The position numbers and the translations under genes were made by a program. A stretch of DNA of 64,000 nt from Dehalococcoidia bacterium (GTDB lineage: Bacteria > Chloroflexota > Dehalococcoidia > UBA2979). The notes under the pieces were generated by a model. That model ran no database searches, was not told where the DNA came from, and worked only from the letters and a program-made list of their open reading frames with translations. The stretch covers positions 73,784 through 137,783 of the forward strand of contig JAWKPL010000001.1 of NCBI GenBank assembly GCA_041390685.1, written 5' to 3'. This document shows, one piece after another, positions 2,999 to 50,640 of this stretch (the stretch's first letter is position 1; the number at the start of each line of letters is the position of its first letter).

Positions 2999-4363
2999 CT
3001 ACGACTTCGGCAACCACACCACCACCGCCGCACCTGCGTCGGCCGCCCGGTCGATGCGAGCCTCCCCGCCGTGCGCACGCGCCACGGACCGCACGATCGC
3101 TAGCCCGAGGCCTGTCCCCTCCCCCGCTCGCGACTCGTCCCCCCGCGTGAACCGCTCGAATGCCCGGTCGATGAACGCCCGCTCGAACCCCCCACCCGAG
3201 TCGCGGACTGCCAACTCCACCCCGTCCCCCGCGTCGTGCACCTCGATCACGACGGCGCCGGCCCCGTGCCGCAGCGCGTTGTCCACGAGGTTCGCGAGCG
3301 CCTGCTCCAGCCGGAACGCGTCGCCATCAACCGACAGCCCGTCGGGGCATCGCACCTCCACCGTCCGGCGGAGCGCGGTCGCCTCCGCCTCGAAGCGCTC
3401 CTGGACGCGCCCGCACAACGCGAGGACCGCCACCTCCTCTTGCCGCAGCTGCGCCGATCCCCCGTCGTCGTCGAGCCGCGCCAGCGTCAGCAGGTCGTCC
3501 ACCAGCCGCCGGAGGCGTCCCACCTCCTCCTCCACCGACCGCAACGCGTCCGTCGCCTCCTCCGCCGACCGAGGCCGCCGCAACGCCAGGTCCAGCTCGG
3601 TGCGCAGCGCCGCCAGCGGCGTCCGCAACTCGTGGCTCGCGTCCGCGACGAACGCGCGCTCCCGTGCGGCGCTCGCTTCCAGGCGCTCGATCATCTCGTT
3701 GAGCGTTTCGCCCAGCCGGTACACCTCGTCGTGCGCCGTCGGCAGCGGCAGACGCCGGCCGGATGCCCCGCCGCCCGCCACCTTCGCCGCCTCGACTCGC
3801 ATCCGCTCCACCGGCCTCAAAGCCGCGCCCGCGAGCGCATAGCCCGCGATCGACGTCACCGCGAGCGCAGCCGGCCCGATCAGCAGGAGCTGCGCCGCGA
3901 GCCCGGACAGCGCCTCGGCCCGGTCGTCGAGTGACGCTCCCACCACCACGACGCCCCCGTCCCCGCTCGGCCCCACGAGCAGCCTCGCCGGCGCCCCGCC
4001 CATCGCGGGGACGCCCGCCCGCTCGATGAATGACCGCCCCCGGCGCCCTCGTTCGATGTCCTCTGCCCGGATGAGCGGTCCGCCCACGACACCCGCCGAC
4101 GCGTAGGCCACCCCGCCATCCGCCCGCAGCACCTGCACAAACGCATCGTCGCCTGCTCCCGACAGGCCGGCGTCGGCCGCCACTCCCCCTCCCGCCACCA
4201 GCGCCACCACCGTGTCGGCGTGCGCCTCCAGGCCGTTGTCCACCTGTTCTAGGAGCGCCGCACTCGTGCGTGCGTACAGCACCGCCCCCACCGCCACGAG
4301 CACCAGCGCCATCGCCGCCCCAAACGTCAGCGTGAGACGCGCCCGGATCGGCAGCCGGCTCAT
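2999..4363 (-). CDS. sensor histidine kinase (two TM segments + HAMP + HisKA + HATPase_c)
   Basis: H-box 'ASHELRTPLAAL' and G-box 'GTGLGLAIV' are present. The ATG at 4363 overlaps the response-regulator stop (ATGA). The listed 643-aa ORF is an upstream in-frame extension. Confidence 0.9.
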   Translation of the reverse strand: MSRLPIRARLTLTFGAAMALVLVAVGAVLYARTSAALLEQVDNGLEAHADTVVALVAGGGVAADAGLSGAGDDAFVQVLRADGGVAYASAGVVGGPLIRAEDIERGRRGRSFIERAGVPAMGGAPARLLVGPSGDGGVVVVGASLDDRAEALSGLAAQLLLIGPAALAVTSIAGYALAGAALRPVERMRVEAAKVAGGGASGRRLPLPTAHDEVYRLGETLNEMIERLEASAARERAFVADASHELRTPLAALRTELDLALRRPRSAEEATDALRSVEEEVGRLRRLVDDLLTLARLDDDGGSAQLRQEEVAVLALCGRVQERFEAEATALRRTVEVRCPDGLSVDGDAFRLEQALANLVDNALRHGAGAVVIEVHDAGDGVELAVRDSGGGFERAFIDRAFERFTRGDESRAGEGTGLGLAIVRSVARAHGGEARIDRAADAGAAVVVWLPKS

Positions 4364-5049
4364 CGCGTTCCGGCATCCCGCAGTCGGTACCCCACACCTC
4401 GCACCGTCTCGATCGTCTCGAGGCCGAACGGTCGGTCCACCTTTTCGCGCAGGTACCGCACGTACACGTCCACCACGTTCGAACGCCGCTCGTACTCGGT
4501 GTCCCACACGCGGTCCAGCAACTGCTCGCGCGTGAGCACCTGCCCCGGACGCCGCATCAGCGCCTCGAGGAGCGCGAACTCCTTCGTCGACAGCGCAATC
4601 TCCGCGCCGCCCCGCCACACCCGCCGCGCCGCCGGGTCCAGCCGCAACCCCCCCGCCTCGAGGAGCGTCGGGCGCTCCACCGGCCCGCGCCGGGCCAGTG
4701 CCCGCATCCGCGCCAGCAGCTCCGCGAACGCGAACGGCTTCGCGAGGTAGTCGTCTGCCCCCGCGTCGAGCCCGGCCACGCGGTCGTCCACCGCGTCCCG
4801 CGCCGTCAGCATGATCACCGGCGCCCACACTCCCGCCGCGCGCATGCGCCGGCACACTTCGAAGCCATCGAGCCCCGGCAACATCACGTCGAGCAAGACC
4901 GCGTCGTACGCGTGCTCCTCCGCCATCCACACGCCGTCATCCCCGCGGTGCACGACGTCGACGACATGCCCCTCCTCGACGAGGCCGCGCCGCAGCAGCC
5001 CCGCCAGCTTGACCTCGTCTTCGACCACCAGCACCCGCATCGCGTCCAC
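4360..5049 (-). CDS. OmpR-family response regulator
   Basis: Receiver domain 'VLVVEDE...LDVMLPGLDGF' with a C-terminal winged-helix 'LTRREFALLEALMRRPGQVLTREQL'. The true start is probably MRVLVV at ~5040. Confidence 0.9.
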   Translation of the reverse strand: MDAMRVLVVEDEVKLAGLLRRGLVEEGHVVDVVHRGDDGVWMAEEHAYDAVLLDVMLPGLDGFEVCRRMRAAGVWAPVIMLTARDAVDDRVAGLDAGADDYLAKPFAFAELLARMRALARRGPVERPTLLEAGGLRLDPAARRVWRGGAEIALSTKEFALLEALMRRPGQVLTREQLLDRVWDTEYERRSNVVDVYVRYLREKVDRPFGLETIETVRGVGYRLRDAGTR

Positions 5050-7249: not shown

Positions 7250-7455
7250 CCCCCCCGCGCCCCCAACAACCGCCGAGGCCACCCACCGACCTCGACCCGC
7301 GCGGGGCACAGACCGGCCGCGCATGCCGGGGAGTCGAGGAGACGGCAGCCCCCTCAGGGGCGTGGGCGGGCCCTCCGAACAACAACTGCCGGCCGCGCAG
7401 CGGCCGTCCTCATCGCGCCGCGCAGCGGCGCCCCCCGCCGCCTGCCCCGCCGAGG

Positions 7456-8100
7456 TCAGCGCAGACTGAACGGCGGATACCGGTCCGTCAGCATCAGGAA
7501 CGCATACGCCTGCACCCGCAGCCCCCACCGCCCCACACCCACCACATAGTCGAACAGCCCCCGCGGATACCGGCCCGTGAACAGAATTGCGAACCACGCC
7601 GCGATCACCGCCAGCACCGCCCCGAGGATCAAGAAGAACAGCACGATGTAATGCGGGATCGCCAGCAACCACTTCACGAGGGGCAACCACCGGTTCAGCG
7701 CACGCGCGTCCGGATAGTCCAGCTCCACGTGCACCGCCTGCTCATCCTCCGTCGACGGATACTCATCCCGCAGCAGCGCGAGGTACGCCCCCACCCTCGA
7801 GGAGAACCGAGTCAGCCCGAGCAGAAAGTCGAACCACCACCGCGGATACCGCTGCCGGAACAGGATCATCAGCGCCAGCGCGAACCCGATCCCGCCCACG
7901 ATCGTCCCGCCCGAGTCCCGCGCCGACGCCCCACCGTCCCCGATGCTCACCGCCCCGCCCCCGCCGCTGCTCACCAGCGCCAGGATCACAAAGATCGGCA
8001 CCACCCACAGCAACCGAAACGCCGAGGACACCCGGTCCAGCCGCTCCGGATACTCCACCTCCAGCCGCGCCGCATACGAGGTCACCTGCTCGTTCATCAC
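7456..8100 (-). CDS. DUF4389-domain membrane protein
   Basis: 'AIPHYIVLFFL' and 'FTGRYPRGLFDYVVGVGRWGLRVQAYAFLMLTDRYPPF' are characteristic of DUF4389. Confidence 0.8.
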   Translation of the reverse strand: MMNEQVTSYAARLEVEYPERLDRVSSAFRLLWVVPIFVILALVSSGGGGAVSIGDGGASARDSGGTIVGGIGFALALMILFRQRYPRWWFDFLLGLTRFSSRVGAYLALLRDEYPSTEDEQAVHVELDYPDARALNRWLPLVKWLLAIPHYIVLFFLILGAVLAVIAAWFAILFTGRYPRGLFDYVVGVGRWGLRVQAYAFLMLTDRYPPFSLR

Positions 8101-8201
8101 TCCACCTCACTCACCCACCAACCGAGGCCAACCGGCCCCCGCGTGCAGCGCACTTTACGCCTCGACCTACCCGCGATGTCCGAGCGCTCCGGTGGACCGA
8201 C

Positions 8202-10772
8202 CTATCCATCGACGCGAATCGCGGGCCTCAGCCGAGAGAATATCTCGGCGAAGAGAGGTAATTGAATATCCGCCGCGACTTCGAGGGAGATGGCCATTCC
8301 GTATGGCACACCCGTATCGTCACCTGCATCCGCGGTGTCGCGCCGGTTCACCCTGAAACGCAAGACGCCACCCTCGACAAACGCGGATGCACGCTCGCCT
8401 TCGAACACTTCGTGCTGCACCGTGCCTCGGCGTGCCATGTTCATTTCGACCTCAGAACGCTTGACGTCGATCTGGTGCTCGGAACCATCAGCAGCCTCGA
8501 ACCACAATGCGGCCTGGCGGTAACTACGATGATTCAACGTTGTCGGACTGAGCCACGCCAACGTCAATGTGAGTCGTCGTCGCAGTCGGACACCCGCCAG
8601 GCTTGGAGGCAATGGTACTTCGTAGAGCTCGGCTTCATCTCGTGCCAATTTCCCCCATCCGACCAAGGTCACGCGCTGATCGGTGCCTCCCAGTGCCCGC
8701 TCTTCCTCGATCGCGCCGAACCCGAGCAGTCGCGTAAGCTCTCTCCTCCTCCGAACGGGAGGGACATCGCTGAGCGCTCTTTCAATCACGGTCGCGGCAT
8801 CTCCCCAACACGCCGCGTGCACCACGAGGCATTTCGTCAGCACAGTTCGAAACTCGTCGGGGATCTGCGTCGTCTCTTCCAGCAGCTCATATACACGTGC
8901 AGCAAGGTGTGAAATCGTTGCCGCCGCGTTACTTGTTCCGTGAACAAACGTCGTTGCTGCTAAGTCCCCAGGCGGCCCAACTGCTGCGACTTGCACCCCC
9001 GGGGCTCGTCCCGATGGGAGACTCTGGAGGACCTCGTTGCCGTCGGTACCCATGGGCAAACCGAATCGATACGATATTCTCCCGCCCCGCGCAAGGACAT
9101 CTGGCTTTACGCTTCGCCCGTAGCCCAGTCCAAGTGCGTTAATAGGACTGGGCAAAATCTCACTTGTATAGACTGCGAGTGCCCGTGGATGCATAGCCCC
9201 AGAGCCGTCTCCGTTTACGGCGGCAACCGTCAGTCCATTCACTGACTCCGCTGGCGAAAGAAGCCGCCTAAGACGTGCGTCAGACCATAGTGCTCGCAGA
9301 ATCAAGTGTGTCTTTGCATCCGCTTCCAGTTCGTCGAAAGTGCTACGTGACATGAATAGGGGAACCTGTGCATCGTGATTGCCGGCGCTCACCACGAATA
9401 GGACGTTGTACTTCCAGGAAAGCCAGTCCAATAGCCTGGCCATCGGGCTGATAATCGAATCGAACGGGCGCCAAGAGTCGCCGATCGAGAAATTGACGAT
9501 CCTCACAGTCGGAGCCGCGGGTATCACCGACCCCCCCGTAACTTCGAACATCTCTCGCACAGCACGATGGATCAAATCGACGCTCAGCACATCGTCGGGG
9601 AGCCTTTCAGCTCGTTCTATATGCCGGGAGTCGGGCCGCATGACCGGTCGAACATAGACTAAGTTCCCGAGTGTGGTCCTTGGACTTGATAGGTCCCCAT
9701 GCACAAGAATCGACGCCATCGCAGTTCCGTGCCGCTGCTCAGCCGCTTCATATACAGAAGCCATGTCGTCCGCGTCATTTAGTAGTAACCGTCCCGCCAA
9801 CAGCGCGTGGTTCGTCAGCGGCAACCCGTCCAACAAGGCGAGACGGGGCAGACCGAGCGTCTCCGAAGGCGATTCCGATTGCGCGGTCGTACGTAGCTCA
9901 TCCACCGGATTGACCGGCGCGGTGAATTGTGCGGCCGGGCGAATGAACATGATCGACCCCGCCCGAACAACTTCAACTTCCCGCCCCTGCACGAGGCCTG
10001 CAGCAACGCCGGCCGGAATGTTAACCAACATCGCGTGGTAGCCGATCTCCGGAATGAGAGCGGTTGCTTGTACCGATCCTCCGCTCGCAGCGACCAGCCC
10101 ACGAATACTCTCTTCGGCGTGTAGCCTCGACTCTGCTGTGCCGCGGAACCATAGTTCGATCTCTGCAGGGACCGTCTCATCGCCCACCTGAAGGCGATCC
10201 GCCCGGTCCTCCGCAAGACCCGTGTCGAGGACGCGGTCCCGGTAACCCCAAAGACGGATGTCGCGAAGCTGATCGAAAAGATCCCGCCAGGGGGTTTGAC
10301 CGCGTGGCCAGCCCTCGTCGGCTCCCCCCTTGATTCGAAGGTAGAGCTCCCAGAGTCGTCGGAGCTCGGCGATCGCCTCCTGGTCGGCCAGCACCAAATA
10401 GACTCTGGCCGGGATCCCTGGCTCGGTCGAGCCATCGCTCCCACGGAAGTCGGCATCCTCGTCAACGCGGAATTCATCGGATTCGACCAGCCATTCCCAC
10501 CCAGGCATTCGGCGGACGGCACGAACGAATTCGTCGACTGAACCAGCCACCTCAAACACGATCACTTCCTCGGGTGCTGCGTCCATCGCACTCCGCTGGA
10601 ATGTTCGGCTTCGCTGGCGAAATTGCTCCTCGAGTTCGAGGATACGGGGCGTAACGCGTTCCTGCTGCCGCTGCCATCCCGGACTTGATGGACGGGCACC
10701 GCCGCCACCCCGCCTCACGGAACGTGGCTCCTGCCTAACCGGTCTCAGAAAAATGAACGGTCGGTCGGGCAT
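8202..10772 (-). CDS. S8 (subtilisin-like) serine peptidase, 856 aa, ietS-like
   Basis: Catalytic signatures: 'ALLDGLP' (Asp), 'HGTAMASILVHGD' (His), 'VVSAGNHD' (oxyanion Asn) and 'GTSNAAATISHLAARV' (Ser). It starts about 10 nt after the upstream ATPase stop. GC is lower than the flanks. Confidence 0.85.
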   Translation of the reverse strand: MPDRPFIFLRPVRQEPRSVRRGGGGARPSSPGWQRQQERVTPRILELEEQFRQRSRTFQRSAMDAAPEEVIVFEVAGSVDEFVRAVRRMPGWEWLVESDEFRVDEDADFRGSDGSTEPGIPARVYLVLADQEAIAELRRLWELYLRIKGGADEGWPRGQTPWRDLFDQLRDIRLWGYRDRVLDTGLAEDRADRLQVGDETVPAEIELWFRGTAESRLHAEESIRGLVAASGGSVQATALIPEIGYHAMLVNIPAGVAAGLVQGREVEVVRAGSIMFIRPAAQFTAPVNPVDELRTTAQSESPSETLGLPRLALLDGLPLTNHALLAGRLLLNDADDMASVYEAAEQRHGTAMASILVHGDLSSPRTTLGNLVYVRPVMRPDSRHIERAERLPDDVLSVDLIHRAVREMFEVTGGSVIPAAPTVRIVNFSIGDSWRPFDSIISPMARLLDWLSWKYNVLFVVSAGNHDAQVPLFMSRSTFDELEADAKTHLILRALWSDARLRRLLSPAESVNGLTVAAVNGDGSGAMHPRALAVYTSEILPSPINALGLGYGRSVKPDVLARGGRISYRFGLPMGTDGNEVLQSLPSGRAPGVQVAAVGPPGDLAATTFVHGTSNAAATISHLAARVYELLEETTQIPDEFRTVLTKCLVVHAACWGDAATVIERALSDVPPVRRRRELTRLLGFGAIEEERALGGTDQRVTLVGWGKLARDEAELYEVPLPPSLAGVRLRRRLTLTLAWLSPTTLNHRSYRQAALWFEAADGSEHQIDVKRSEVEMNMARRGTVQHEVFEGERASAFVEGGVLRFRVNRRDTADAGDDTGVPYGMAISLEVAADIQLPLFAEIFSRLRPAIRVDG

Positions 10773-10782
10773 TGCTCGCTCG

Positions 10783-11760
10783 CTACGAAGTCGTTCCAGT
10801 GACCTTGCGTCGGCTATTCCATTGTCGCAGGCGGCTCTTCAGGATCTCGTCGGGCTTGGCCTCTCCTTGCTGCAAGACCATACGGCGCTGTACGTCAAGC
10901 ACGAAGTCGGTTAGCTCAGCGAAACTTGAACCCGCGAGAGATCGACTGATGGAATCGTAAGAGCGCCGCGACTCCCCTACCGCCGAACCAAGGCGCGCGC
11001 GCAGAAATGCCTCACGCTGGATTGGCCCCGGAGCCGGAAGCTCCAGCCGAACCTCAAACCGCCGCCACACGGCGCGATCGAGCAACTCAGGATGATTGGT
11101 TGCTGTCACCACCACAACGTGGCTCGGGAGCGAGTCAATCTGCAGCAGCAAGGAGCTCACGACACGCTTCACCTCCCCGGTATCGTGTGGGTCACCACGC
11201 TCCTTGGCAATCGCGTCGAATTCGTCAAAGAAGAGAACGCACTGCCGAGTCCTAACAAAGTCGAACAGTTGGCTGATCCGATAGGCCGTTTCGCCCAGAT
11301 AACTCCCAATAATGCGATCGTATCGCACGGACATGAGAGGAACAGCGAGCTCGAATGCCAACGCCTCGGCGAGAGAGGTTTTCCCGTTTCCTGGAGGCCC
11401 TACCAGCATGATCCGGTGACGCGGTTCGAGGTTGAAGGACTGCAACAACGTGCGCCTCTGCTGCTCCTCTATCAGTTCACCAACGATCTCCAACAGTGGC
11501 GCGGCGAGATAGAGGTCAGTCAGGCTTCGGGCGGGTAAAGTAGCGTGCACATATGCGTCCGCTGCTGCATCCCCTAAGGTGCTCAGGAGTACGCCTTCCT
11601 TCTCCGGGCGCCGTATCCGCTGCTCTAGCTGATCGGCGAGAACATCGTGACGTCGCCCGCGCTCCTCGGCGATGAGCGCCTCGGCAGCACGACGGAACAT
11701 CACTCGGTCGCCGGCAGACCCGGACTCCACGAGCTTCAGCAGCAAGTCACCTCTAGCCAT
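10783..11760 (-). CDS. AAA+ ATPase (classic AAA clade), ietA-like
   Basis: Walker A 'GPPGNGKTS', Walker B 'VLFFDEFD', sensor-1 'TATN' and an Arg finger 'RRF'. It is directly upstream of the S8 peptidase on the same strand. Confidence 0.85.
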
Positions 11761-16606: not shown

Positions 16607-17296
16607 CTAATCCGGCACCCAGATGCGGCGCGCTGCCTGCAGGCCCAGCACCAGGTCACGCCCCTCGAGGCGCACCGTGACCGTCCCCCGGTACGGCGCC
16701 GTCTCCACCACCTCGATCACGGCGCCCGGCCGGATCCCCTCAAGGTCGAAGAACCGCAGCAGTTCTTCATCTTCCTCATACACCCGCTCAACCACCGTGG
16801 TCGCCCCGGCCGGTAAGTCCGAGAGCCGCAGCCGTGACAGCGGATGACGGTGCGGCGAGCCCGGGATCGGGTAACCGAACGGCGACAGCGTCGGGTCACC
16901 GAGCTTCTCCACGATCAGTGGCTCGGTCACGTCCGAGATCGAGTGCTCCATGAGGTGCGCCTCTTCGTACGCGCGCCACCATTCGAGGCCGAGCGTCTCC
17001 ACCAGCAGGCACTCGGCCAGTCGGTGCCGCCGCACCATCTGCTCCGCACGCTGGAACCCGGTCTTCGTCAGCGCGATCCGCTTCCGCTCGTCGACGCTCA
17101 CAAGCCGGTCCCGACGCAGCCGTGACAGCATCCCCGCGATCGAGGCCGGCCGGATCCCAAGCCGGTCTGCGACCCGCGCCGCGATCACCTCTTCGTGCTC
17201 ATCGTGTGACAGCCGGTAAATCGTCGTCAGGGCGTCGTCGGACGCGACGTTCGTGACCTGCTTTGGCACCTGTCTCCTCCGGGCCAGATCGTCCAT
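16607..17296 (-). CDS. DtxR/IdeR/MntR-family metal-dependent transcriptional repressor with C-terminal FeoA/SH3-like domain
   Basis: N-terminal helix-turn-helix 'TTIYRLSHDEHEEVIAARVADRLGIRPASIAGMLSRL', a dimerisation/metal-site region and a C-terminal SH3-like domain. The start is uncertain between the ATG at 17296 and a downstream GTG. Confidence 0.8.
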   Translation of the reverse strand: MDDLARRRQVPKQVTNVASDDALTTIYRLSHDEHEEVIAARVADRLGIRPASIAGMLSRLRRDRLVSVDERKRIALTKTGFQRAEQMVRRHRLAECLLVETLGLEWWRAYEEAHLMEHSISDVTEPLIVEKLGDPTLSPFGYPIPGSPHRHPLSRLRLSDLPAGATTVVERVYEEDEELLRFFDLEGIRPGAVIEVVETAPYRGTVTVRLEGRDLVLGLQAARRIWVPD

Positions 17297-17458
17297 CTGG
17301 CTGCCGCTTACGGCAACCGCTACGGGAGCGCATAGCCGCCCCCCAACGTATGATGCGCGCGGCGCTTCGCTTCGCCACGGGTCGCAGAGGGCACAGACGT
17401 CAGCACGGAAGAACTGAGCGAACCCCAGGCAAGGCACGAAGCCGTCCTCGCCCCGCTC

Positions 17459-20670: not shown

Positions 20671-21278
20671 TGCGGCTCATCCTTGCATCTGGTTCCGCGC
20701 GCCGTCCAGAGCTTCTCGCCTCCCTGGGCGTTCCCTTCGAGGTCCAGCCCGCAGGCGTCGACGAGTCGTCCGGCGAGCGCGACCCCGAGCGACTTGCCCG
20801 CGAGCTCGCGCTGCGGAAGGCATCGGCGGTCCAAGCGCTGGAGCCGCAGGCTGTGGTCATCGGCGCGGACACGCTCGTTTCCTTCGGGGGCCGCTTGTTC
20901 GGGAAACCCGCCGATGCCGCCCAGGCCACCGAGACCCTCCGCGCGCTGAGAGGCCAGACGCATCAGGTCGTCAGCGGCGTGGCCGTGGTCGGCCCGGAGA
21001 AGCGGGCAGTGGCTGCAGTCGTCACCCACGTAACGATGCGTCCATACACCGACGATGACATCGATCGCTACGTCGCGACAGGCTCGCCCCTCGACAAGTC
21101 CGGCGCGTATGCGATCCAGGATCCTGGCTTCGCGCCCGTCGCCTCGTACGACGGCTGCATGTGCTCAGTGATCGGGTTGCCGCTCTTCACCACGCGCCGG
21201 CTACTGCGGGAGGCTACTGGCATCGAGACAGAGCGCCCTGCGTACGACCGCTGCCGCGTCTGCCCCCTGCGGGGGTGA
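20670..21278 (+). CDS. maf: Maf-like nucleoside triphosphate pyrophosphatase
   Basis: 'LILASGSARRPELL' and 'GADTLV...GKP' Maf signatures. The ATG overlaps the upstream stop (ATGA). Confidence 0.85.
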   Translation: MRLILASGSARRPELLASLGVPFEVQPAGVDESSGERDPERLARELALRKASAVQALEPQAVVIGADTLVSFGGRLFGKPADAAQATETLRALRGQTHQVVSGVAVVGPEKRAVAAVVTHVTMRPYTDDDIDRYVATGSPLDKSGAYAIQDPGFAPVASYDGCMCSVIGLPLFTTRRLLREATGIETERPAYDRCRVCPLRG

Positions 21279-21284
21279 TCGGGC

Positions 21285-21914
21285 TCAGCCGCGCACGACG
21301 AGCAACTCCCCGACGAACGTCGAGAGACGCATGCGGAGGCGCTTCGGCTGCTGCTCGTACTCGTCGCTACGGACGTGGATATCACGCACGAACCCCTCCT
21401 CGCGCCGCCCGAGCACCTCAACCGAGCCCACCATCGTCTGCGCGGTCACGTCGACGGCCACGTCGGCCGGCACCCGGACGTGAATCGCCCCCAGCCAGCA
21501 GAGCAGCGTGAGTTCGGTCTCGCCCTCAGGCAGGTCGGCCCTCCCGAGATCGAGCGAGATGTCGCCGAGCACCGTCGAGATGACGGCGTCATCGACCGTC
21601 CAGCCGGACAGGTCCGATCGCACGTGCCCGATCGCTCGGCGCAGGCGGCGCGTGAAGCGACGCACACGCCACGCTGCGATAAACGCCAGCGCGCCGGCCC
21701 AGACGAACGCGAGGCCGACCGCAACGCCGACCGAGCCCGCGACACCATACGAGCGGATCCCCAGGCTATCGAGCAGGAAGAGCGAACCGAGCGCCACGAG
21801 ATACGCGGCGACCGACAGAGGGAGAACGTCCTTTGCGCGCCAGCTCATCCAGTCGGAGCCGTCATCGCCGGCGGTAGTAACGCCGCATACGCTCATACAC
21901 GATGACGAGTCCAA
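21285..21914 (-). CDS. LiaF-like / DUF2154-type membrane protein (start uncertain, possibly MSWRAK at 21848)
   Basis: N-terminal TM helices. The C-terminal beta-rich domain '[33 protein letters not shown]' resembles the LiaF/toastrack domain. Assignment is from memory. Confidence 0.5.
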
Positions 21915-22251
21915 CGGCGATCAGGATCAATGGCCACAGCTCATTGATCCCCACATCGATCACATCGAGCGACTCCAGGAGGAAGATCACTCCGATGACC
22001 ACTAGGACGACGCCGATCGCCAAAGAACCCCCCGTAGCCACGGACACTGCCACGATTGATTGTACGTTTACAGGGCCGTGTGTACCTTGGACGAGTCCGT
22101 CGATCCGGCTCGGCGTACGTGGAACCCCTCCCGCCCAGCGCTCGGCCTCCCGGCGCCCCCGCGCTCCCTCATCTTCCGACTTGCCGCTCAACCAGTCGTA
22201 TGCACGGAACGGGGACTCGATGACCAACAACGCCGCCTCAGCGATCAGCAA
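21862..22251 (-). CDS. small membrane protein (PspC/LiaI-like?), start uncertain
   Basis: The C-terminal two-TM region is '[16 protein letters not shown]...[25 protein letters not shown]'. The N-terminal part overlaps the promoter of the divergent ABC gene, so the true start is probably internal. Confidence 0.35.
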
Positions 22252-22951
22252 TCAGATCATCCAGGTCTCGGATCTCGTCAAGAACTACGATTCCGGCGCG
22301 GTCCAGGTGCAGGCCCTGCGAGGGGTCTCGCTTGCCGTGCGCCGTGGGGAGATGGTCGCCGTGATGGGACCCTCTGGCTGCGGCAAGACCACCTTGCTCA
22401 ACTGTCTCTCCGGCATCGACGACGTCACCAGCGGCCAGGTGCTGATCGAAGGGACGGACATCAGCACGCTCGATGACAACACCAAGACGTCATACCGGGC
22501 CCGGCGCATGGGCTTCATCTTCCAGTTCTACAACCTCTTGCCCGTGCTCACGGCAGTGGAGAACGTCGAGTTGCCGCTCCTGGTGTCGGGCACCTCGCCG
22601 AAAGAGTCCCGCGATCGAGCCATCGAGGCGCTGCGTCGCGTCGGCCTCGAGGGCTGGGCTCAACACAAGCCGGGCCAGCTTTCAGGCGGCCAGCGTCAAC
22701 GGGTGACCATTGCGCGGGCGCTCGTCAACCAGCCGGCCATCGTATGGGCAGACGAGCCGACCGGCGACCTCGACTCGGCGACGGCCGGCGACATCATGAG
22801 CCTGATGCAACAGCTCAACCGCGAGCAGTCCCTCACGTTCGTCATCGTGACGCACGACGCCAGTATCGCCGCGCGATGCCACCGCATCATCCACATGCAG
22901 GACGGGCGCATCGAGCGCGAGGTCGTCAACGAGGGGGCCACTGTTGGATAA
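22220..22951 (+). CDS. ABC transporter ATP-binding protein (MacB/FtsE/LolD type)
   Basis: Walker A 'GPSGCGKTT', signature 'LSGGQRQRV' and Walker B '[11 protein letters not shown]'. Confidence 0.9.
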
Positions 22952-25900
22952 GCTCTTCGGCATCCCCCTCAACAGCATCATGGTGGCGCTGCTGATCCTG
23001 CTGGCAGTCGCGTTCGCTGTCATCATCTGGATCGCGCTCCGGCGGCCGCTGCTCGTTCGGATGGGACTCCGTAACGCCATCCGGCGCCCTGCGCAGACAG
23101 CGCTCATCGTCGTCGGCGTGATGCTGTCGACCCTGATCATCAGCGCCGCGTTCTCGACCGGTGACACCGTCGGCTACTCCGTGACCAACGTCATCTACAA
23201 CTCGTTGCGAGGCGTGGACTACCTTGTCGGATTCGATGCCGAGAACAACGGCGTGGAGCGCGATCAGGCGTACCTCACGACCGACTTCCTCCGGTCGGTC
23301 GAGGACGAGTTCGCCGACGATCCCGACATCGACGGCATCACCCCGGTGCTGATCGAGCAGTTGCCCATCCTGAACGAAGCGCAGCGTCTGTCCCAGCCAC
23401 AGGGCGCCTTCATCGGCATCGACCCGGAGTCAGTTGAGCCGTTCCGGGCGCTCCGCGACCTGAACGACCGTGAAATCGGCGCAGCCGACCTCACAGGAAA
23501 CCGCACGTATATCAGCGAGCGCCTGGCCCAGCAAGTCGACGCCACGACCGGCGACACGCTCACCGTCTTCGTCGAGAATCGACCAACGACGTTCGAGGTC
23601 ATCGGTGTGGTTCGCGACACTTCGCTCACTTCGCGGAGCGCGCTCGAAGGCGACGCCACCACCGAGCCACCGGGCGGCATGATCGTGAACCTCGAGGTCG
23701 CGCAGGACATCCTCGATCGTGCCGGCCGTATCTCCTTTATCGGCATCTCCACGAGCGGGGGCGTCCGAGACGCGCTGGCACTCGAGGATGACCGGGTGGA
23801 GCAGAAGCTCGATGACTTCATCGACGCGAACCCGGAGAGCCGCGCGACCGTCTTCGCGGCGAAGGATCAGCTCGTTGGCATCGCGGAGCTGATCGGCTCA
23901 GTGTTCGTGACGCTCTTCATCGTGTTCGGGCTGTTCTCGATCGCCGCGGGAATCATGCTCATCTTCCTGATCTTCATCATGCTGGCCGCCGAGCGCCGTT
24001 CGGAGATGGGGATGGCGCGGGCCGTCGGCATGAGTCGGCTCAACCTCACCGAGAGCTTCCTTGCCGAGGGGATGGCGTACAACATCGGTTCGGCAGCCGT
24101 GGGCGCCGTCCTCGGCGTTGGCGTGGCCGCGCTGCTCGTCCTCATCCTGGGGCGGGTATTCAGCGAGACCGGTCTCAACATCACGTTCCACTTCAATCCC
24201 CGCGCGTTCGTGATCGCCTATAGCCTGGGCGTCGTCCTGACGTTCATCACCGTGACGTTCTCGGCCTACCGCGCCGCGAACCTCAACATTGTGCGTGCGA
24301 TTCGCGATATCGATGAGCCTCAGATGCTCGGTGGCAACAGCCGCTCGATCGGAAGCCTGTCGAAGTCGGCGGTCGGCGTGCTGTGGTACGTCGCCTGGCT
24401 CACGCTGCTCGCCGTCCTCGGGTTCGGCGCCACCGTCCTCTTCTTCCTCGGCCTGAGCACGTACGGGATCGGCTTCTTGATTGCCGGGCTGTTGATCGCG
24501 CTCTTCTGGGTAGGCGCACGGTCCGTCAACCGGAGCGGACGCGGACGCTCGCTCGTCGGCTGGGCAGTGCTGGTGCTGTGGTGGGTGGTCTTCACCCCCG
24601 CGGGTCTGCTGGCGCCGCTCACCTGGCTGCTGCTGAAGACGCGCGCGTGGGCGGCGCGTCACCGACACGCGGGTGGATGGGCGCTATGGATGCTCATCGT
24701 CGGTGTGACGCTCACGTACTTCGGCGGCTGGGTCTGGCATCAGCAGTTCGCCTATACGGGCGGTACGACGCTCGCGGTGCTCGCCGTCGCGATGCTGGCA
24801 GTGTATTTCGGCATCCCGGCGCGTCCAGCGTTCACCGTCGCGAGCATCGCCCTCGTGTGGTACTGGCTGCTACCGCTGCCGTTCTCCCTCTTCACGGACG
24901 AACCGCTGGAAAACTTCGGGCCCCTCGAGGGACTCACGAAGATCCTCGGGCTTCCACAGCCTCGCTCGACCGGCAACATCGAGATGTTCTTCGTGTCCGG
25001 CATCTGCATCACTGCATCGGCGACGCTGCTCGTGATCTTCAATGCCGCAGCCCTCCTGGGACTCGTGTCGGCATTCGGGCGGCTGCTGGGCGGTATTGCA
25101 CCGGCTCTGAAGACGGCGATCGCCTATCCGCTCGCCTCGAAGTTCCGGACGGGCATCACCCTCGCGATGTTCGGACTCGTCGTCTTCAGTCTCGTGGTGA
25201 TGGCGACGCTCAACTCCAACTTCACTCAGTTGTTTGCCGGCGAGGAGGCGACCGCCGGCTTCGACGTCGTAGTCGACGCGAACCCGTCGAACCGTATCCC
25301 GGACCTGCGAGCCGCGCTGAACGACGCCGGCTACGACGGCCCACCGCTCGCTGCCGTCGGTACCCAGGTGCTCGCCTCGTCGTTCGGCACGGTCGTCCAG
25401 CATGACGCCAACCCGAAGGAGGACATTCAACCGATTCGGGTCGTCGGAGACGACGAGGAGTTCCTCAGAGTCGCGAACCTGCCCATGAAGTACCGCGCCG
25501 CAGGCTACGAGACCGATCAGGCCGTGATCGAGGCACTCCTCACCGACCCCAGCGTAGCCATCGTCGATGACTCACTCATCGCGGGCGTGAACGAGTTCGG
25601 TGGGCCAGCGGCCGCCGACCAGTTCTCCCTCCGCCGCGCCATCGCGGCCGACGGCTTCGAGCCGGTGGCCGTCACCGTCCAGAATCCGCGCGGGGGCGAG
25701 GATCTGCACCTCAAGGTGATCGGATCCCTCGAACCTCAGGTCACGGGCATTCTCGGGCAGCTCGTCGGGCTGCACACGAACCGGCAGAACATCGACCGGC
25801 TCTTCGGAGGCGGCGATGTGGAGACCTTCTTCATTCAACTCGACGGCGCACCCTCCAAGGCCCGGACGCTGGAGGCGGCGAACGCGATCGAGTCGACGCT

Positions 25901-26372
25901 CCTCGAACGTGGCGTCCAGGCGAGTTCCATCCAAGAGCGTATCGACGATGCGGCGGCGCGGTCGACGGCCTTCCAGTATCTGTTCGAGGGATTCATGGGG
26001 CTGGGTCTGATCGTCGGAATCGCGGCTCTCGGCGTGATCGGCTTCCGGACGGTGGTCGAGCGGCGGCAGCAGATCGGCATGCTCCGCGCGATCGGGTACT
26101 CGAGACGGCTGATCGCCCTCTCGTTCTTCTTCGAGTCCTCGTTCATCGCCCTGGCCGGAGTAGCTATGGGACTCATCCTCGGGACGGCGCTCTCATACAA
26201 CCTGCTGACCAGTCCAACGTTCACTGACGGCGCGGCGATCGACTTCCAGGTGCCGTGGATACGCATCCTGGTCATCTGTGGAATCGCGTACGGCGCGAGC
26301 GCACTGATGACTCTCATCCCGGCCCGGGCAGCATCCCGTGTGGCGGTTGCGGAGGCCCTCCGCTACGAATAA
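22944..26372 (+). CDS. FtsX-family ABC transporter permease with duplicated FtsX domains and large extracytoplasmic domains (1142 aa)
   Basis: Two TM bundles resemble MacB/FtsX C-terminal four-helix domains. The start overlaps the ATPase stop. Confidence 0.85.
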
Positions 26373-26438
26373 TACAAAAAGGTATGTACGCCTTAGCGAA
26401 AACGCGCTACCCTACCGGTCGCTGGAAGAGGAGCACTT

Positions 26439-26789
26439 ATGTCGAACACCCTCATGCGTGGGGCAGCTACGGCGGTCCTGATCGTGGCGCTGGCCGTCGC
26501 GCAGACTTCGGTCGTGTCAGCACAGGCGCCCGGCGAGATCGGCGGCAATCTACCCCAGAACGGCGGCTACGCGATCGTCGTCTGGGGCGGCGGCACACCC
26601 GATGCGCTCGTCCAGGCCGCAACGGACAAGGGCTGCTCCCCCGCGTCGATCTGGATCACGGCGCAGGGCCAGTTCGTCCCGTACGTGGTCGGTGCTCCCG
26701 ACTTCGTGAACGAGGGGTTCATTGAGCGATTCGACGGTGGATCCCTGCCAGGAGGCACGCCCGTGATCATCGTCTGCCAGACCCTGTAA
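26439..26789 (+). CDS. small secreted protein, unknown domain
   Basis: A signal peptide precedes a domain with 'VVWGGGT...GC....IWIT..G....YVVGAPDFVN', which is shared with the next gene. Confidence 0.6.
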   Translation: MSNTLMRGAATAVLIVALAVAQTSVVSAQAPGEIGGNLPQNGGYAIVVWGGGTPDALVQAATDKGCSPASIWITAQGQFVPYVVGAPDFVNEGFIERFDGGSLPGGTPVIIVCQTL

Positions 26790-26856
26790 GCCTCTAGACG
26801 GGGTTCGGCCAAGGCGTCAAGATAGGACGCCACTACTACTGGAACACGGTGAGCTC

Positions 26857-27678
26857 ATGCGCCTCGAGCCCACACACCCGCTGGTCGGGTTCTTGATCGT
26901 ATCCGCGATAGCGGTCGTGCTGCTCGCAACCCCGCCGCCGGCGGTCGCGGCGGCCGGGGATCTCGTCGGAGACATCCCCGTTCACGGTGCTGGTCTGGTG
27001 GTCTGGGGCGGCGGGACGACCTCGGACCTGAGTCACGCAGCGGAAGGGCGTGGGTGCCACGCCGACATTCTGTGGATTACTGACAGTGGCCGCCTTGCGG
27101 TGTACGTCTACGGTGCACCAGACGTGGTAAACGCCGCGTTTGCCGAACTCTTTCCAGGGGGCATGATCGCCTCTTCGACGGCACTTGTGTTGATGTGCAG
27201 CCCGCCTGTCGCGTCAGCGCCGGCGTCCTCCTCGCCCGCCCAGCCGTCGTCCTTCGATGAGCAGTTCGCTGCGGTCGTGTTCGAGGGCGTAAACCAGGCG
27301 CGTGCGACGGACGGCCACTCAGTGTTGAACCTCGATACGCGATTACGCAGCGCGGCTGAATCCTACGCTCGGCTGCTGCTTGATCGGGGTGAGCTCAGCC
27401 ACAGCCTCGACGGTCAGCCATGGGAGCGAGCACAGCGGGTGGGGTACCCCAGCCAGTATGTGGGCGAAGTCCTCGTCTCCCGGAGCACCTCACTCGAGTT
27501 GAGTATCGGTAGCGATGGACCGGAATTGGTCACCGCGTGGATGGAGAGCCCTCCGCACCGCGCGATCATCCTCGGGAGGGACTACGCGTTCACGGGCCTC
27601 GGTGTGGGGTGTGCAACGGGCGTCGACCCCAGCGGGCTCAATGCCGTCGTCTGCGTCGCGCTGCTGGGCGCGCCGTAA
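26857..27678 (+). CDS. secreted protein: N-terminal domain paralogous to 26439..26789 fused to a C-terminal CAP (SCP/PR-1-like) domain
   Basis: The N-terminal half aligns with the preceding ORF. The C-terminal half has CAP-like 'VNQARA', 'HS' and 'GEVL...W..SP.HR..IL...Y...G.G' motifs. Confidence 0.65.
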   Translation: MRLEPTHPLVGFLIVSAIAVVLLATPPPAVAAAGDLVGDIPVHGAGLVVWGGGTTSDLSHAAEGRGCHADILWITDSGRLAVYVYGAPDVVNAAFAELFPGGMIASSTALVLMCSPPVASAPASSSPAQPSSFDEQFAAVVFEGVNQARATDGHSVLNLDTRLRSAAESYARLLLDRGELSHSLDGQPWERAQRVGYPSQYVGEVLVSRSTSLELSIGSDGPELVTAWMESPPHRAIILGRDYAFTGLGVGCATGVDPSGLNAVVCVALLGAP

Positions 27679-27747
27679 CGCACCCAGCGTCCTTCGTCGT
27701 TCGTCGTTCGCGCGCTCGTTCGACGGAACCGGCGCTGTCGATATCCG

Positions 27748-29190
27748 CTAGAGGGGCGCGGGCAGCGCGCTCGAGCCCATCAAGTAAGCATCAATTCCAT
27801 GTGCCGCGGTGCGGCCTTCGGCGATCGCCCAGACAATGAGCGACTGCCCCCGAGTCATGTCGCCGGCGGTGAAGACGCCCGGAACGCTGGTCATCCGGTT
27901 CTCATCTGACCACACGTTGCCCCGCTCCGTCAGGCGTACCCCGAGCTGATCGAGCATCCCCGCCTGTTCCGGGCCGACGAAGCCCATGGCGAGCAGCAGC
28001 AGGTCTGCGTCGACCTCGAACTCCGAGCCGGCGACTTCCTTCATGACCTGCCGTCCGTCCTCGGGGATGAATTCCACCCGTACCGCATGGAGCTTCTGGA
28101 GGACGCCGCCTTCGCCCGAGAGACGTTTCGTCAGGATGCTGTAGTCGCGCTCGCCACCCTCCTCGTGAGCTGAAGAGACACGGTAGACGTTTGGCCACGT
28201 GGGCCACGGGTTCTCAGGTGGCCGTCCGTCGGGCGGGCGAGGAAGCAACTCGAACTGCTTCACCTCCGCAGCGCCCTGTCGGATGGCCGTACCGAGGCAG
28301 TCCGCTCCCGTATCGCCCCCGCCGAGGATCACGACCTTCTTGCCCTTCGCGCTCACGAATTGGTCGTCCGGGATCTCGTCACCGGCGTTGCGCCGGTTCT
28401 GCATCGGGAGGTACTCCATCGCGAGGTACACGCCTCGCAGGTCACGGCCCGGCACATCGAGGTCCCGCGCATGCGTCGCGCCGCCGGTCAGGCAGATGGC
28501 GTCGAACTGCTGGAGCAGATCACGCGCATCGATATCCTGGCCCACGTTGACGGAGGTTCGGAACTCGACGCCCTCCGCCTCCATCTGCTGCAGGCGACGG
28601 TCGATGAACTCCTTCTGCATCTTGAAGTCCGGGATCCCGTAACGGAGCAGACCTCCGATGCGGTCGTCGCGTTCGAAGACGGTGACGGCGTGACCCGCGC
28701 GCGCCAGTTGTTGGGCGGCCGCAAGACCCGCGGGGCCGGACCCGATGACCGCCACGCTCTTGCCGGTCCGCTGCTGTGCCGGCTCAGGCGCGATCCAGCC
28801 CTCGCGGTACGCATGCTCGATGATGGTCAATTCCACCTGCTTGATGGTGACCGGGTCGTTGTTGATGCCGAGGACGCACGCAGCCTCGCAAGGCGCCGGA
28901 CAGAGCCGTCCCGTGAATTCGGGGAAGTTGTTCGTGGCGTGCAAGCGTTCGATCGCCTCATGCCACTTCTCGCGGTACACGAGGTCATTCCAGTCGGGAA
29001 TGATATTGCCCAGCGGGCACCCCTGATGGCAGAAGGGGATGCCACAGTCCATACAGCGCGCGGCCTGCTGTCGCAGCGACTCGTTCGGGAAGTCTTCGTA
29101 AACCTCAAGCCAATCGTGGACGCGTTGGCCCACAGGCCGACGCTGGGGCGTCTCGCGCTCGAACTCGAGGAAACCGGTGGGCTTAGCCAT
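27748..29190 (-). CDS. gltD: glutamate synthase (NADPH) small subunit
   Basis: 4Fe-4S Cys motifs '[14 protein letters not shown]' and an FAD/NAD(P) Rossmann '[14 protein letters not shown]'. Confidence 0.95.
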
Positions 29191-50552: not shown

Positions 50553-50640
50553 TGGCGGAGGGGGTGGGATTCGAACCCACGGTGGCTTGCGCCACGACGG
50601 TTTTCAAGACCGCTCCTTTAAACCGCTCAGGCACCCCTCC
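50553..50640 (-). tRNA. tRNA-Ser (anticodon UGA), type II with long variable arm
   Basis: The reverse complement is 'GGAGGGGTGCCTGAGCGG...GGTCTTGAAAACCG...GGGTTCGAATCCCACCCCCTCCGCCA'. It folds as a cloverleaf with a 7-bp acceptor stem, a T-loop GGTTCGAATCC, an encoded CCA and the anticodon loop CUUGAAA. Confidence 0.9.

Follow-up and report, generated by a model that had tools for sequence, protein, structure and literature searches.

Gene content of the cluster

Between positions 21285 and 27678 of a 64,000-nucleotide (nt) stretch of DNA from a Dehalococcoidia bacterium (contig JAWKPL010000001.1, positions 73,784 to 137,783 of the forward strand; referred to here as the window, to which all coordinates apply unless a locus is named) lie six genes. 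They encode a LiaF-like and a small LiaI-like membrane protein, the ATPase and permease of an ABC transporter, and two secreted proteins that share a domain, termed here DOM, the second of which is fused to a CAP domain. A sequence-only reading of this DNA had proposed a six-gene cluster with these domains and had considered it to be related to the cell envelope. Searches of Pfam and NCBIfam bear out both proposals, with all six genes confirmed in position and domain assignment and with a domain content that is that of an envelope cluster. Upstream, the cluster is flanked by maf, a tRNA U5-methyltransferase gene (TrmA) and an M42 peptidase gene, and downstream by a gltD-gltB operon on the minus strand that is convergent on the cluster.

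The LiaF-like gene (21285..21848, minus strand) encodes a protein of about 187 amino acids (aa) with two transmembrane (TM) segments and a C-terminal LiaF_C/toastrack domain. Its open reading frame (ORF) reaches 21914, and its start is most likely at 21848, which yields 187 aa, the same length as in relatives. The small LiaI-like two-TM protein (21862..22053, minus strand) is approximately 61-63 aa in length as opposed to 129 aa, with GTG start candidates that can be read in the sequence and with relatives of 53-61 aa; the ORF listed for it, which extends to 22251, is probably too long at its 5' end. A divergent intergenic region (22054..22219), in which promoters are presumed from the sequence, separates the LiaI-like gene from the ATPase gene (22220..22951, plus strand). 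The most likely start of the latter is the ATG at 22220 rather than 21902, giving 243 aa compared with 238-239 aa in relatives. These corrected starts are backed by their agreement with the genes called in orthologous contigs.

The permease gene (22944..26372, plus strand, 1142 aa) starts with TTG and overlaps the stop of the ATPase gene by 8 nt (TTGGATAA), and the overlap is preceded by a GAGGGGG stretch. The residues right behind the TTG are conserved among orthologues, which makes the coupled permease start credible and sustains the translational coupling that had been proposed for the two genes. The stand-alone DOM gene (26439..26789, plus strand, 116 aa) and the gene of the DOM-CAP fusion (26857..27678, plus strand, 273 aa) follow on the same strand after short gaps of 66 and 67 base pairs (bp), respectively. 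A scan of positions 21000-28000 for consensus sigma-70-like promoters returned no site, this consensus being uninformative for Chloroflexota, and a terminator scan of the same interval returned two terminator-like sites, on the minus strand, vs. 2.5 expected by chance. RNA folding of three intergenic and 3' regions gave z-scores of -0.65 to -1.44 and no terminator or structured element, and an Rfam search of the cluster found nothing at E<=1 apart from chance snoRNA matches. The 66-bp spacer that separates the permease gene from the 116-aa gene (26373-26438, GGTATGTACGCCTTAGCGAAAACGCGCTACCCTACCG) is nearly identical in the window and in two related loci, L006 and L007, despite the L007 proteins being merely 63-87% identical to those of the window. 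Judged by this conservation, the spacer may be an internal promoter or operator.

The ATPase (ABC_tran, 1.7e-36) is of the MacB/LolD/YbbA clade. Its best NCBIfam matches are LolD (3.9e-77), YbbA (6.1e-68), MacB (2.7e-67) and FtsE (6.6e-59), all of which fall under the equivalog cut-offs. The permease is a fused, pseudo-dimeric protein of the FtsX/MacB type in which Pfam FtsX matches two stretches. Its hydropathy profile contains about 16 TM-like segments, seven of which lie in a central insert. An extra N-terminal TM precedes module 1, which comprises a TM at residues 52-70, an extracytoplasmic domain at about 71-329 and three further TM; the multi-TM insert occupies residues ~486-719, and module 2 consists of a TM at 738-756, an extracytoplasmic domain at about 757-1015 and again three TM. 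The two extracytoplasmic domains are therefore of about 260 aa each. When a profile of 48 permease sequences was compared with the Protein Data Bank (PDB), its matches, to LolF (1.1e-18), YtrF (2.9e-18), LolC (4.3e-15), LolE, FtsX, the pneumococcal 5xu1_M (all of the C-terminal module) and MacB (5lil; N-terminal module), together covered both halves. Together with a module layout of TM1, extracytoplasmic domain and TM2-4 and with a cognate ATPase of the LolD/MacB/FtsE clade, these profile matches show that the transporter belongs to the Type VII (MacB/FtsX) ABC superfamily. An assignment as orthologue of FtsEX, LolCDE, MacB or YbbAP was rejected, the equivalog cut-offs being widely missed and YbbP not being among the PDB matches.

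Within its superfamily, the permease represents a distinct fused architecture of about 16 TM, and it has homologues with 29-56% identity in 80 or more metagenomic loci. Wherever a locus includes sequence upstream of the permease, an ATPase reading frame immediately precedes the permease gene, L051 being the one exception. The permease had been described as unusually large; this does not hold within its family, where 55 full-length homologous reading frames measure about 1000-1200 aa from stop to stop. Profile searches weakly matched part of the central TM insert (residues ~471-557; 24354-24614) to the TM repeats of Piezo1 (E ~0.007-0.008), with no stretch that passes on its own, and these matches are most likely compositional. 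In 12 loci of the most distant permease clade (L064-L095, from soil metagenomes), the ATPase gene is immediately preceded by a conserved ORF of about 250 aa without a Pfam match (for example, 531-1289 in L089). Clustering of the neighbours in the distant permease loci gave no common partner beyond this ORF and scattered LuxR-type regulators.

The LiaF-like protein matches Pfam PF09922 (2e-22) and NCBIfam NF040535 LiaF_C_term (76.2 bits vs. a cut-off of 57), and its two TM (residues 30-48 and 62-80, counted on the long ORF) are followed by the C-terminal LiaF_C domain. The small protein, which also has two TM, matches PF18917 (LiaI-LiaF-like TM region, 3.6e-10) and PF22570 (7.1e-8) over its C-terminal 50 aa. 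Accordingly, of what had been proposed for this divergent pair, the LiaF/toastrack protein and the LiaI part of a PspC/LiaI-like protein stand, and the PspC part does not, as no PspC match was obtained in Pfam. Neither a LiaS kinase nor a LiaR regulator is adjacent to the pair in the window, where the neighbours are maf and the ABC ATPase gene, and the same is true of the orthologous loci.

The DOM domain and its fusion to CAP

Both secreted proteins begin with a hydrophobic segment that, read by eye, is signal-like. In the 116-aa protein this segment is followed by one DOM (26526-26780); in the 273-aa protein, a DOM (~26953-27204), a linker and a CAP domain (~27286-27654) follow in turn. The N-terminal parts of the two proteins had been noted to be paralogous, and BLASTP indeed aligns them with 43% identity over 82 aa (E=3e-21), with the motifs VVWGGGT, Cys, WIT, GAPDxVN and a final Cys present in both. 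The 116-aa protein has 25 homologues of 104-135 aa (mostly 115-117) with 62-100% identity and no match in Pfam or NCBIfam. When members of the DOM family were scanned, no Pfam family covered the domain in sets of 19 and of 100 members, and no NCBIfam model covered it in the set of 100. A DOM profile, built from an 85-column alignment, reached only E=0.06 as its best match among PDB sequences. The AlphaFold2 (AF2) model of the 116-aa protein predicts a beta-alpha-beta-beta-alpha-beta arrangement for DOM, with a predicted local distance difference test (pLDDT) of 93.2 and a predicted template modelling score (pTM) of 0.83. Foldseek found no fold match for this model, the best hits being E=0.47 with TM-scores <=0.40 in the PDB and E=0.33 in BFVD. 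Comparison of DOM with the permease family by hhalign gave a probability of 0.3%, that is, the two are unrelated. DOM is a previously undescribed alpha/beta extracellular domain of about 85 residues, and the novelty attributed to it by the sequence-only reading is thus upheld against Pfam, NCBIfam and the PDB.

A profile search run exhaustively over 1.84 billion representatives collected at least 1132 DOM proteins with E<=1e-3, of which 403 reach E<=1e-10, and each of these proteins stands for a cluster at 50% identity. The possibility that the shared domain is a common, unrelated fold had been raised at the outset; it is indeed common, as a module with 1132 representatives and many partners, which speaks against a dedicated docking role, and its model has no fold match in the PDB or BFVD. 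All sources of DOM proteins that carry an organism name belong to the Chloroflexota. A scan of genome contigs with a single peptide pattern, which is skewed to close relatives, gave at least 10 loci, all of them in this phylum, and a look-up of the clusters of 10 diverse DOM proteins yielded a single informative name, that of an SLT-domain protein in a Dehalococcoidia metagenome-assembled genome. When homologues were searched for a third time, with the DOM profile as query, nearly all of the proteins obtained were short, and they added little taxonomy.

The placement of DOM within proteins follows a pattern. Of the best 146 proteins, 67 have it at the C-terminus, 55 at the N-terminus and 11 as a stand-alone domain, and 64 have two copies. 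Of the 46 proteins that exceed 900 aa, 45 have a last DOM that stops 2-39 residues short of the C-terminus, and these 45 carry either a tandem pair (43) or five copies (two). In small proteins, DOM comes right after the signal peptide. The partner domains, as scanned in 100 members, include SH3_3 (10), CAP (nine), Cadherin-like (nine), HtrA-like trypsin (three) and Peptidase_S11 DD-carboxypeptidase (two), in addition to GH3 (with beta-N-acetylhexosaminidase as best NCBIfam match), SLT lytic transglycosylase, nuclease, esterases and pectate lyase, and giant DOM surface proteins feature leucine-rich repeats (LRR), Kelch and cadherin domains. Similar combinations are seen in six distinct DOM proteins of named Chloroflexota genomes, namely SH3_3 with either one or two DOMs behind it, SH3_3-DOM-S11, DOM-S11, and a sub-threshold CHAP with SH3_3 and two DOMs; two more Chloroflexota loci encode near-copies of these six proteins. 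Because of this placement pattern and the fusion to partners related to peptidoglycan, DOM is probably a non-covalent module for anchoring or targeting proteins to the cell wall or envelope.

The definition of the DOM family is the most useful product of this analysis. It would improve the annotation of thousands of surface proteins that are now labelled "hypothetical," and it offers a handle on the attachment of proteins to the wall in the phylum Chloroflexota, where little is known of envelope biology. If the anchoring role is true, DOM would constitute a new class of non-covalent wall anchor that spans more than 1000 clusters of Chloroflexota surface proteins.

The fusion of the second secreted protein to a CAP domain, which had also been proposed, is supported by the score of Pfam CAP (PF00188) in the 273-aa protein, 33.8 bits vs. 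a gathering score of 21.1, and by a fold match. The AF2 model has two domains joined by a linker with pLDDT <50, indicative of flexibility. The CAP part alone had no match among PDB sequences at E<=0.01, and a fold search was therefore needed. In Foldseek, it matched Borrelia BB0689 (4d53, E=1.4e-6, TM-score of 0.75 on the target), GAPR-1 (1smb, 2.2e-5), a Bacillus anthracis protein (4ifa) and Staphylococcus aureus SAV1118 (4h0a), with E-values that range from 1.4e-6 to 3e-5. Given a CAP score above gathering and the alpha-beta-alpha sandwich fold of the CAP/SCP/PR-1 proteins in the predicted model, the CAP assignment of the 273-aa protein is solid. Eukaryotic CAP proteins bind lipids and sterols. 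Among bacterial examples, DalA of Rhodobacter, a lipoprotein of the CAP type, binds peptidoglycan, and normal division depends on it (PMC10470522).

In two further loci, L038 (4873-5493) and L054 (2545-3393), the permease gene is followed after about 300 bp by a CAP gene that lacks DOM. The encoded protein has a signal-like N-terminus, a Thr/Pro-rich linker and a CAP domain. The permeases of these two loci are 63% identical to each other and 38% identical to that of the window, and they occupy a separate branch of the permease tree.

Conservation of the neighbourhood and possible functions

In a neighbour-joining tree, the loci with DOM/CAP genes form one monophyletic sub-clade that consists of the window, L001, L004, L006, L007 and L016, and the stand-alone 116-aa DOM gene is limited to the inner part of this sub-clade. 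Among the 80 metagenomic permease loci, DOM was found only in L016. In 14 further syntenic loci, gltD or gltB is situated directly behind the permease. The gene order that had been expected to be conserved in relatives is therefore kept, as far as the DOM/CAP genes are concerned, in one sub-clade only. LiaF/LiaI are found in 10 of the 80 permease loci, with 47-56% identity, and all LiaF/LiaI-bearing loci that reach far enough upstream keep the M42-TrmA-Maf synteny. The pair is absent where the local synteny is lost (L020 and L021) and also in L031/L032.

Within the sub-clade, L016 has an ORF at ~7300-7800, identified from its translated sequence only, that resembles NUDIX proteins and lies between the permease and DOM-CAP genes. 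The DOM-CAP gene of this locus (7852-8673) is interrupted by an in-frame TAG precisely where DOM has its conserved Trp, which marks either a pseudogene or a sequencing error. Elsewhere, two of the three metagenomic stand-alone DOM loci sit among genes for giant cadherin, LRR and Calx-beta surface proteins.

Taken together, we consider the region, with a probability of roughly 0.55, to be three adjacent and separately evolving envelope units, with DOM as a probable non-covalent wall anchor, and not one demonstrated machine. The core unit, which is family-wide, combines two copies of the LolD/YbbA/MacB-like ATPase with one fused pseudo-dimeric permease. By analogy with its family, it would most likely act by the mechanotransmission that is described for Type VII ABC systems (PMC12646458), in which ATP binding and hydrolysis would move the stalk helices and the extracytoplasmic domains. 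As a result, a molecule located in the envelope would be expelled or extracted, or a partner outside would be moved. The clade-level unit is the divergent LiaI-like/LiaF-like pair, for which adjacency alone is shown and which probably senses or buffers membrane stress. Pair and pump may share their regulation, as happens in the described operons that comprise a membrane-anchored Toastrack protein, an ABC ATPase and a permease (Ravi et al. 2024, PMC11237479). The third unit is a recent addition. In the simplest history, a single insertion at the root of one small sub-clade placed the DOM-CAP gene between the permease gene and gltD, and the 116-aa gene would have arisen by duplication of the DOM part, which is consistent with its confinement to the inner sub-clade. 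The DOM-CAP protein would then be a wall-tethered CAP protein, comparable to DalA, and the 116-aa protein would be the anchor in free form.

Several observations weigh against this reading, some of them on the side of DOM itself and others in favour of alternatives. With regard to DOM, the anchoring role derives from domain-architecture association only, with no structural analogue found. Furthermore, the C-terminal Cys hardly varies, but just 85 of the 146 members have the first Cys, so that a conserved C37-C84 disulfide is not claimed.

With regard to the transporter, the adjacency of DOM and permease genes is kept throughout the sub-clade, where permease identity falls to 62%, with same-strand gaps of 66-67 bp and no terminator-like hairpin, so the permease and DOM genes may be co-transcribed and functionally linked. 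The conserved 66-bp spacer might point the same way, although an internal promoter would explain it equally well. The same-strand arrangement would suit the proposal of the sequence-only reading that the shared domain may be an FtsX-docking module. DOM would dock onto the FtsX-type extracytoplasmic domains, the transporter would mechanically activate or position the CAP effector, and the 116-aa protein would serve as competitor or adaptor. Preservation of the gene arrangement in six related loci is consistent with this proposal, as are the Type VII precedents with adjacent extracytoplasmic partners, YbbAP-TesA and FtsEX-EnvC (PMC12646458). However, the adjacency was inherited together with the whole neighbourhood and thus provides no independent evidence for a functional link. 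DOM is also widespread, occurring in more than 1100 protein clusters with unrelated and diverse partners, and an FtsX permease is absent near all 11 non-orthologous DOM loci, of which eight are genomic (within ~10 kb) and three are the metagenomic stand-alone loci. Conversely, about 74 of the 80 permease homologues are without a DOM gene, including the 14 loci of otherwise identical synteny. Finally, L016 has its NUDIX-like ORF in between and the in-frame stop in DOM-CAP, and the CAP genes of L038/L054 are without DOM. In light of this evidence, docking of DOM onto the permease is very unlikely.

A different partnership is suggested by the occurrence of a CAP gene behind the permease in a second, distant lineage (L038/L054), which would be unexpected by chance if CAP genes are rare. 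Roughly, the probability of a second independent CAP-permease adjacency by chance is 1-2% over the lineages sampled, assuming few CAP genes per genome. CAP, and not DOM, might hence be the partner of this permease family, in a pairing similar to that of YbbAP with TesA, while DOM or a lipid anchor would merely tether CAP. The lipid, sterol and peptidoglycan binding of the CAP relatives described above would be in keeping with such a role. On the other hand, the two lineages are the only ones in which CAP follows the permease: the nearest L038/L054 relatives with downstream sequence (L036, L045, L050, L056 and L057) have no CAP gene, and three more distant CAP homologues (P0043, P0046 and P0049) have no ABC/FtsX genes nearby. 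We therefore regard CAP as an improbable partner of the permease family. The broader proposition that the fused Type VII transporter is the Chloroflexota counterpart of FtsEX-EnvC or YbbAP-TesA, with a DOM-anchored, wall-tethered CAP protein as its client, is likewise considered doubtful, and the proposed transporter-effector system is not established. Should the recurrence of CAP next to the permease be real, it would reveal a new type of client for mechanotransmitting ABC systems, and a CAP client with a DOM anchor would provide the first defined molecular partner for bacterial CAP proteins.

The remaining alternative concerns the other side of the cluster. Of the LiaF/LiaI-bearing loci, L018, L023, L029 and L034 have insertions between maf and liaF, and none of the four has an insertion between liaI and the ATPase gene, so that the LiaFI-ABC-FtsX block is intact. 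This insertion pattern lends mild support to a linkage of LiaFI with the pump. Accordingly, LiaI/LiaF and the ABC pump might form one detoxification or envelope-stress module, similar to BceAB or Ytr, that is directed against compounds active on the cell wall, and the secreted genes would be bystanders. The Toastrack-ABC operons cited above constitute a precedent, and among the closest solved relatives of the permease is YtrF, the operon of which responds to inhibitors of the lipid II cycle by induction (PMC12772383). Against this possibility stand the loss of LiaF/LiaI in the synteny-less L020 and L021 and in L031/L032, and the fact that neither a sensor kinase nor a response regulator is adjacent in the window. 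A joint LiaFI-pump module is a tentative explanation, less likely than three separately evolving units.

Outside the cluster, a lower-GC island on the minus strand (8202-11760) has a GC fraction of 0.60-0.62 vs. ~0.71 in the adjacent flanks. It encodes an AAA ATPase of 325 aa and an S8 subtilase of 856 aa, which PADLOC matches to IetA (3.4e-134) and IetS (2e-278), an anti-phage defence pair. Ordinary genes of the wider context, all on the minus strand, include a tRNA (50556-50640), the sole Rfam match in the window, a HAMP-HisKA histidine kinase (2999-4930) and a DtxR/FeoA-type iron repressor (16607-17437).

Comparison with known systems

With respect to wall attachment, DOM is placed like the non-covalent anchors SLH, LysM, SH3b, CWB2 and GW in that it is single and N-terminal on secreted proteins and enzymes and forms terminal tandems on giant adhesin-like proteins, and it co-occurs with peptidoglycan enzymes and SH3_3. 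It has sequence or fold similarity to none of these anchors and, if it is an anchor itself, would make up a class of its own. The CAP part shares its fold with bacterial CAP/SCP proteins such as BB0689, 4ifa, SAV1118, YkwD and DalA, and DalA is a precedent for an envelope CAP protein that binds peptidoglycan. However, the DalA model NF052539 scores only 40.8 bits vs. a cut-off of 200 and YkwD 30 bits vs. 171, and none of the named CAP proteins carries DOM.

The membrane-protein pair resembles LiaIH-LiaFSR of B. subtilis and the Toastrack-ABC operons, with a LiaF_C/toastrack protein and a small LiaI-type two-TM protein beside an ABC ATPase and permease. In contrast to those systems, LiaS/LiaR, PspA/LiaH and a GntR or RHH regulator are missing here, and the pair is divergent from the ABC genes instead of co-operonic with them. 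FtsEX, which acts with EnvC, PcsB, CwlO or RipC, is of the same superfamily and furnishes the idea of a mechanotransmitter that acts on an extracytoplasmic, wall-active partner. The present transporter differs from it in scoring 199.1 bits with FtsE TIGR02673 vs. a cut-off of 264.85 and 19.3 bits with FtsX_actino vs. 250; moreover, a coiled-coil hydrolase activator is not found nearby, and the surroundings offer no recognisable context of division genes, the sole division-linked neighbour being maf, which is part of the conserved housekeeping synteny.

The transporter itself is closest in design to other members of its superfamily. Both permease halves align to the families of MacB, LolCDE/LolF, YtrEF and Spr0694-0695; those are homo- or heterodimers of permeases of ~400-670 aa, whereas here the modules are fused and a large TM insert is present. 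YbbAP-TesA shares with this system a MacB/LolD-clade ATPase, a duplicated FtsX permease on a single polypeptide with two large extracytoplasmic domains, and a secreted protein encoded next door. The neighbour differs, being a CAP protein and not a GDSL hydrolase (no GDSL protein occurs among the neighbours), and the two genes are neighbours only within a small sub-clade. The permease profile did not retrieve YbbP (9GE6-8) from the PDB at E<=0.01, which suggests that the fusion probably occurred independently. Nevertheless, the fused, pseudo-symmetric YbbP is the architecture that most resembles this permease (PMC12646458), with 10 TM and a 2-TM linker in YbbP compared with about 16 TM-like segments, a seven-segment insert and an extra N-terminal TM in the protein described here.

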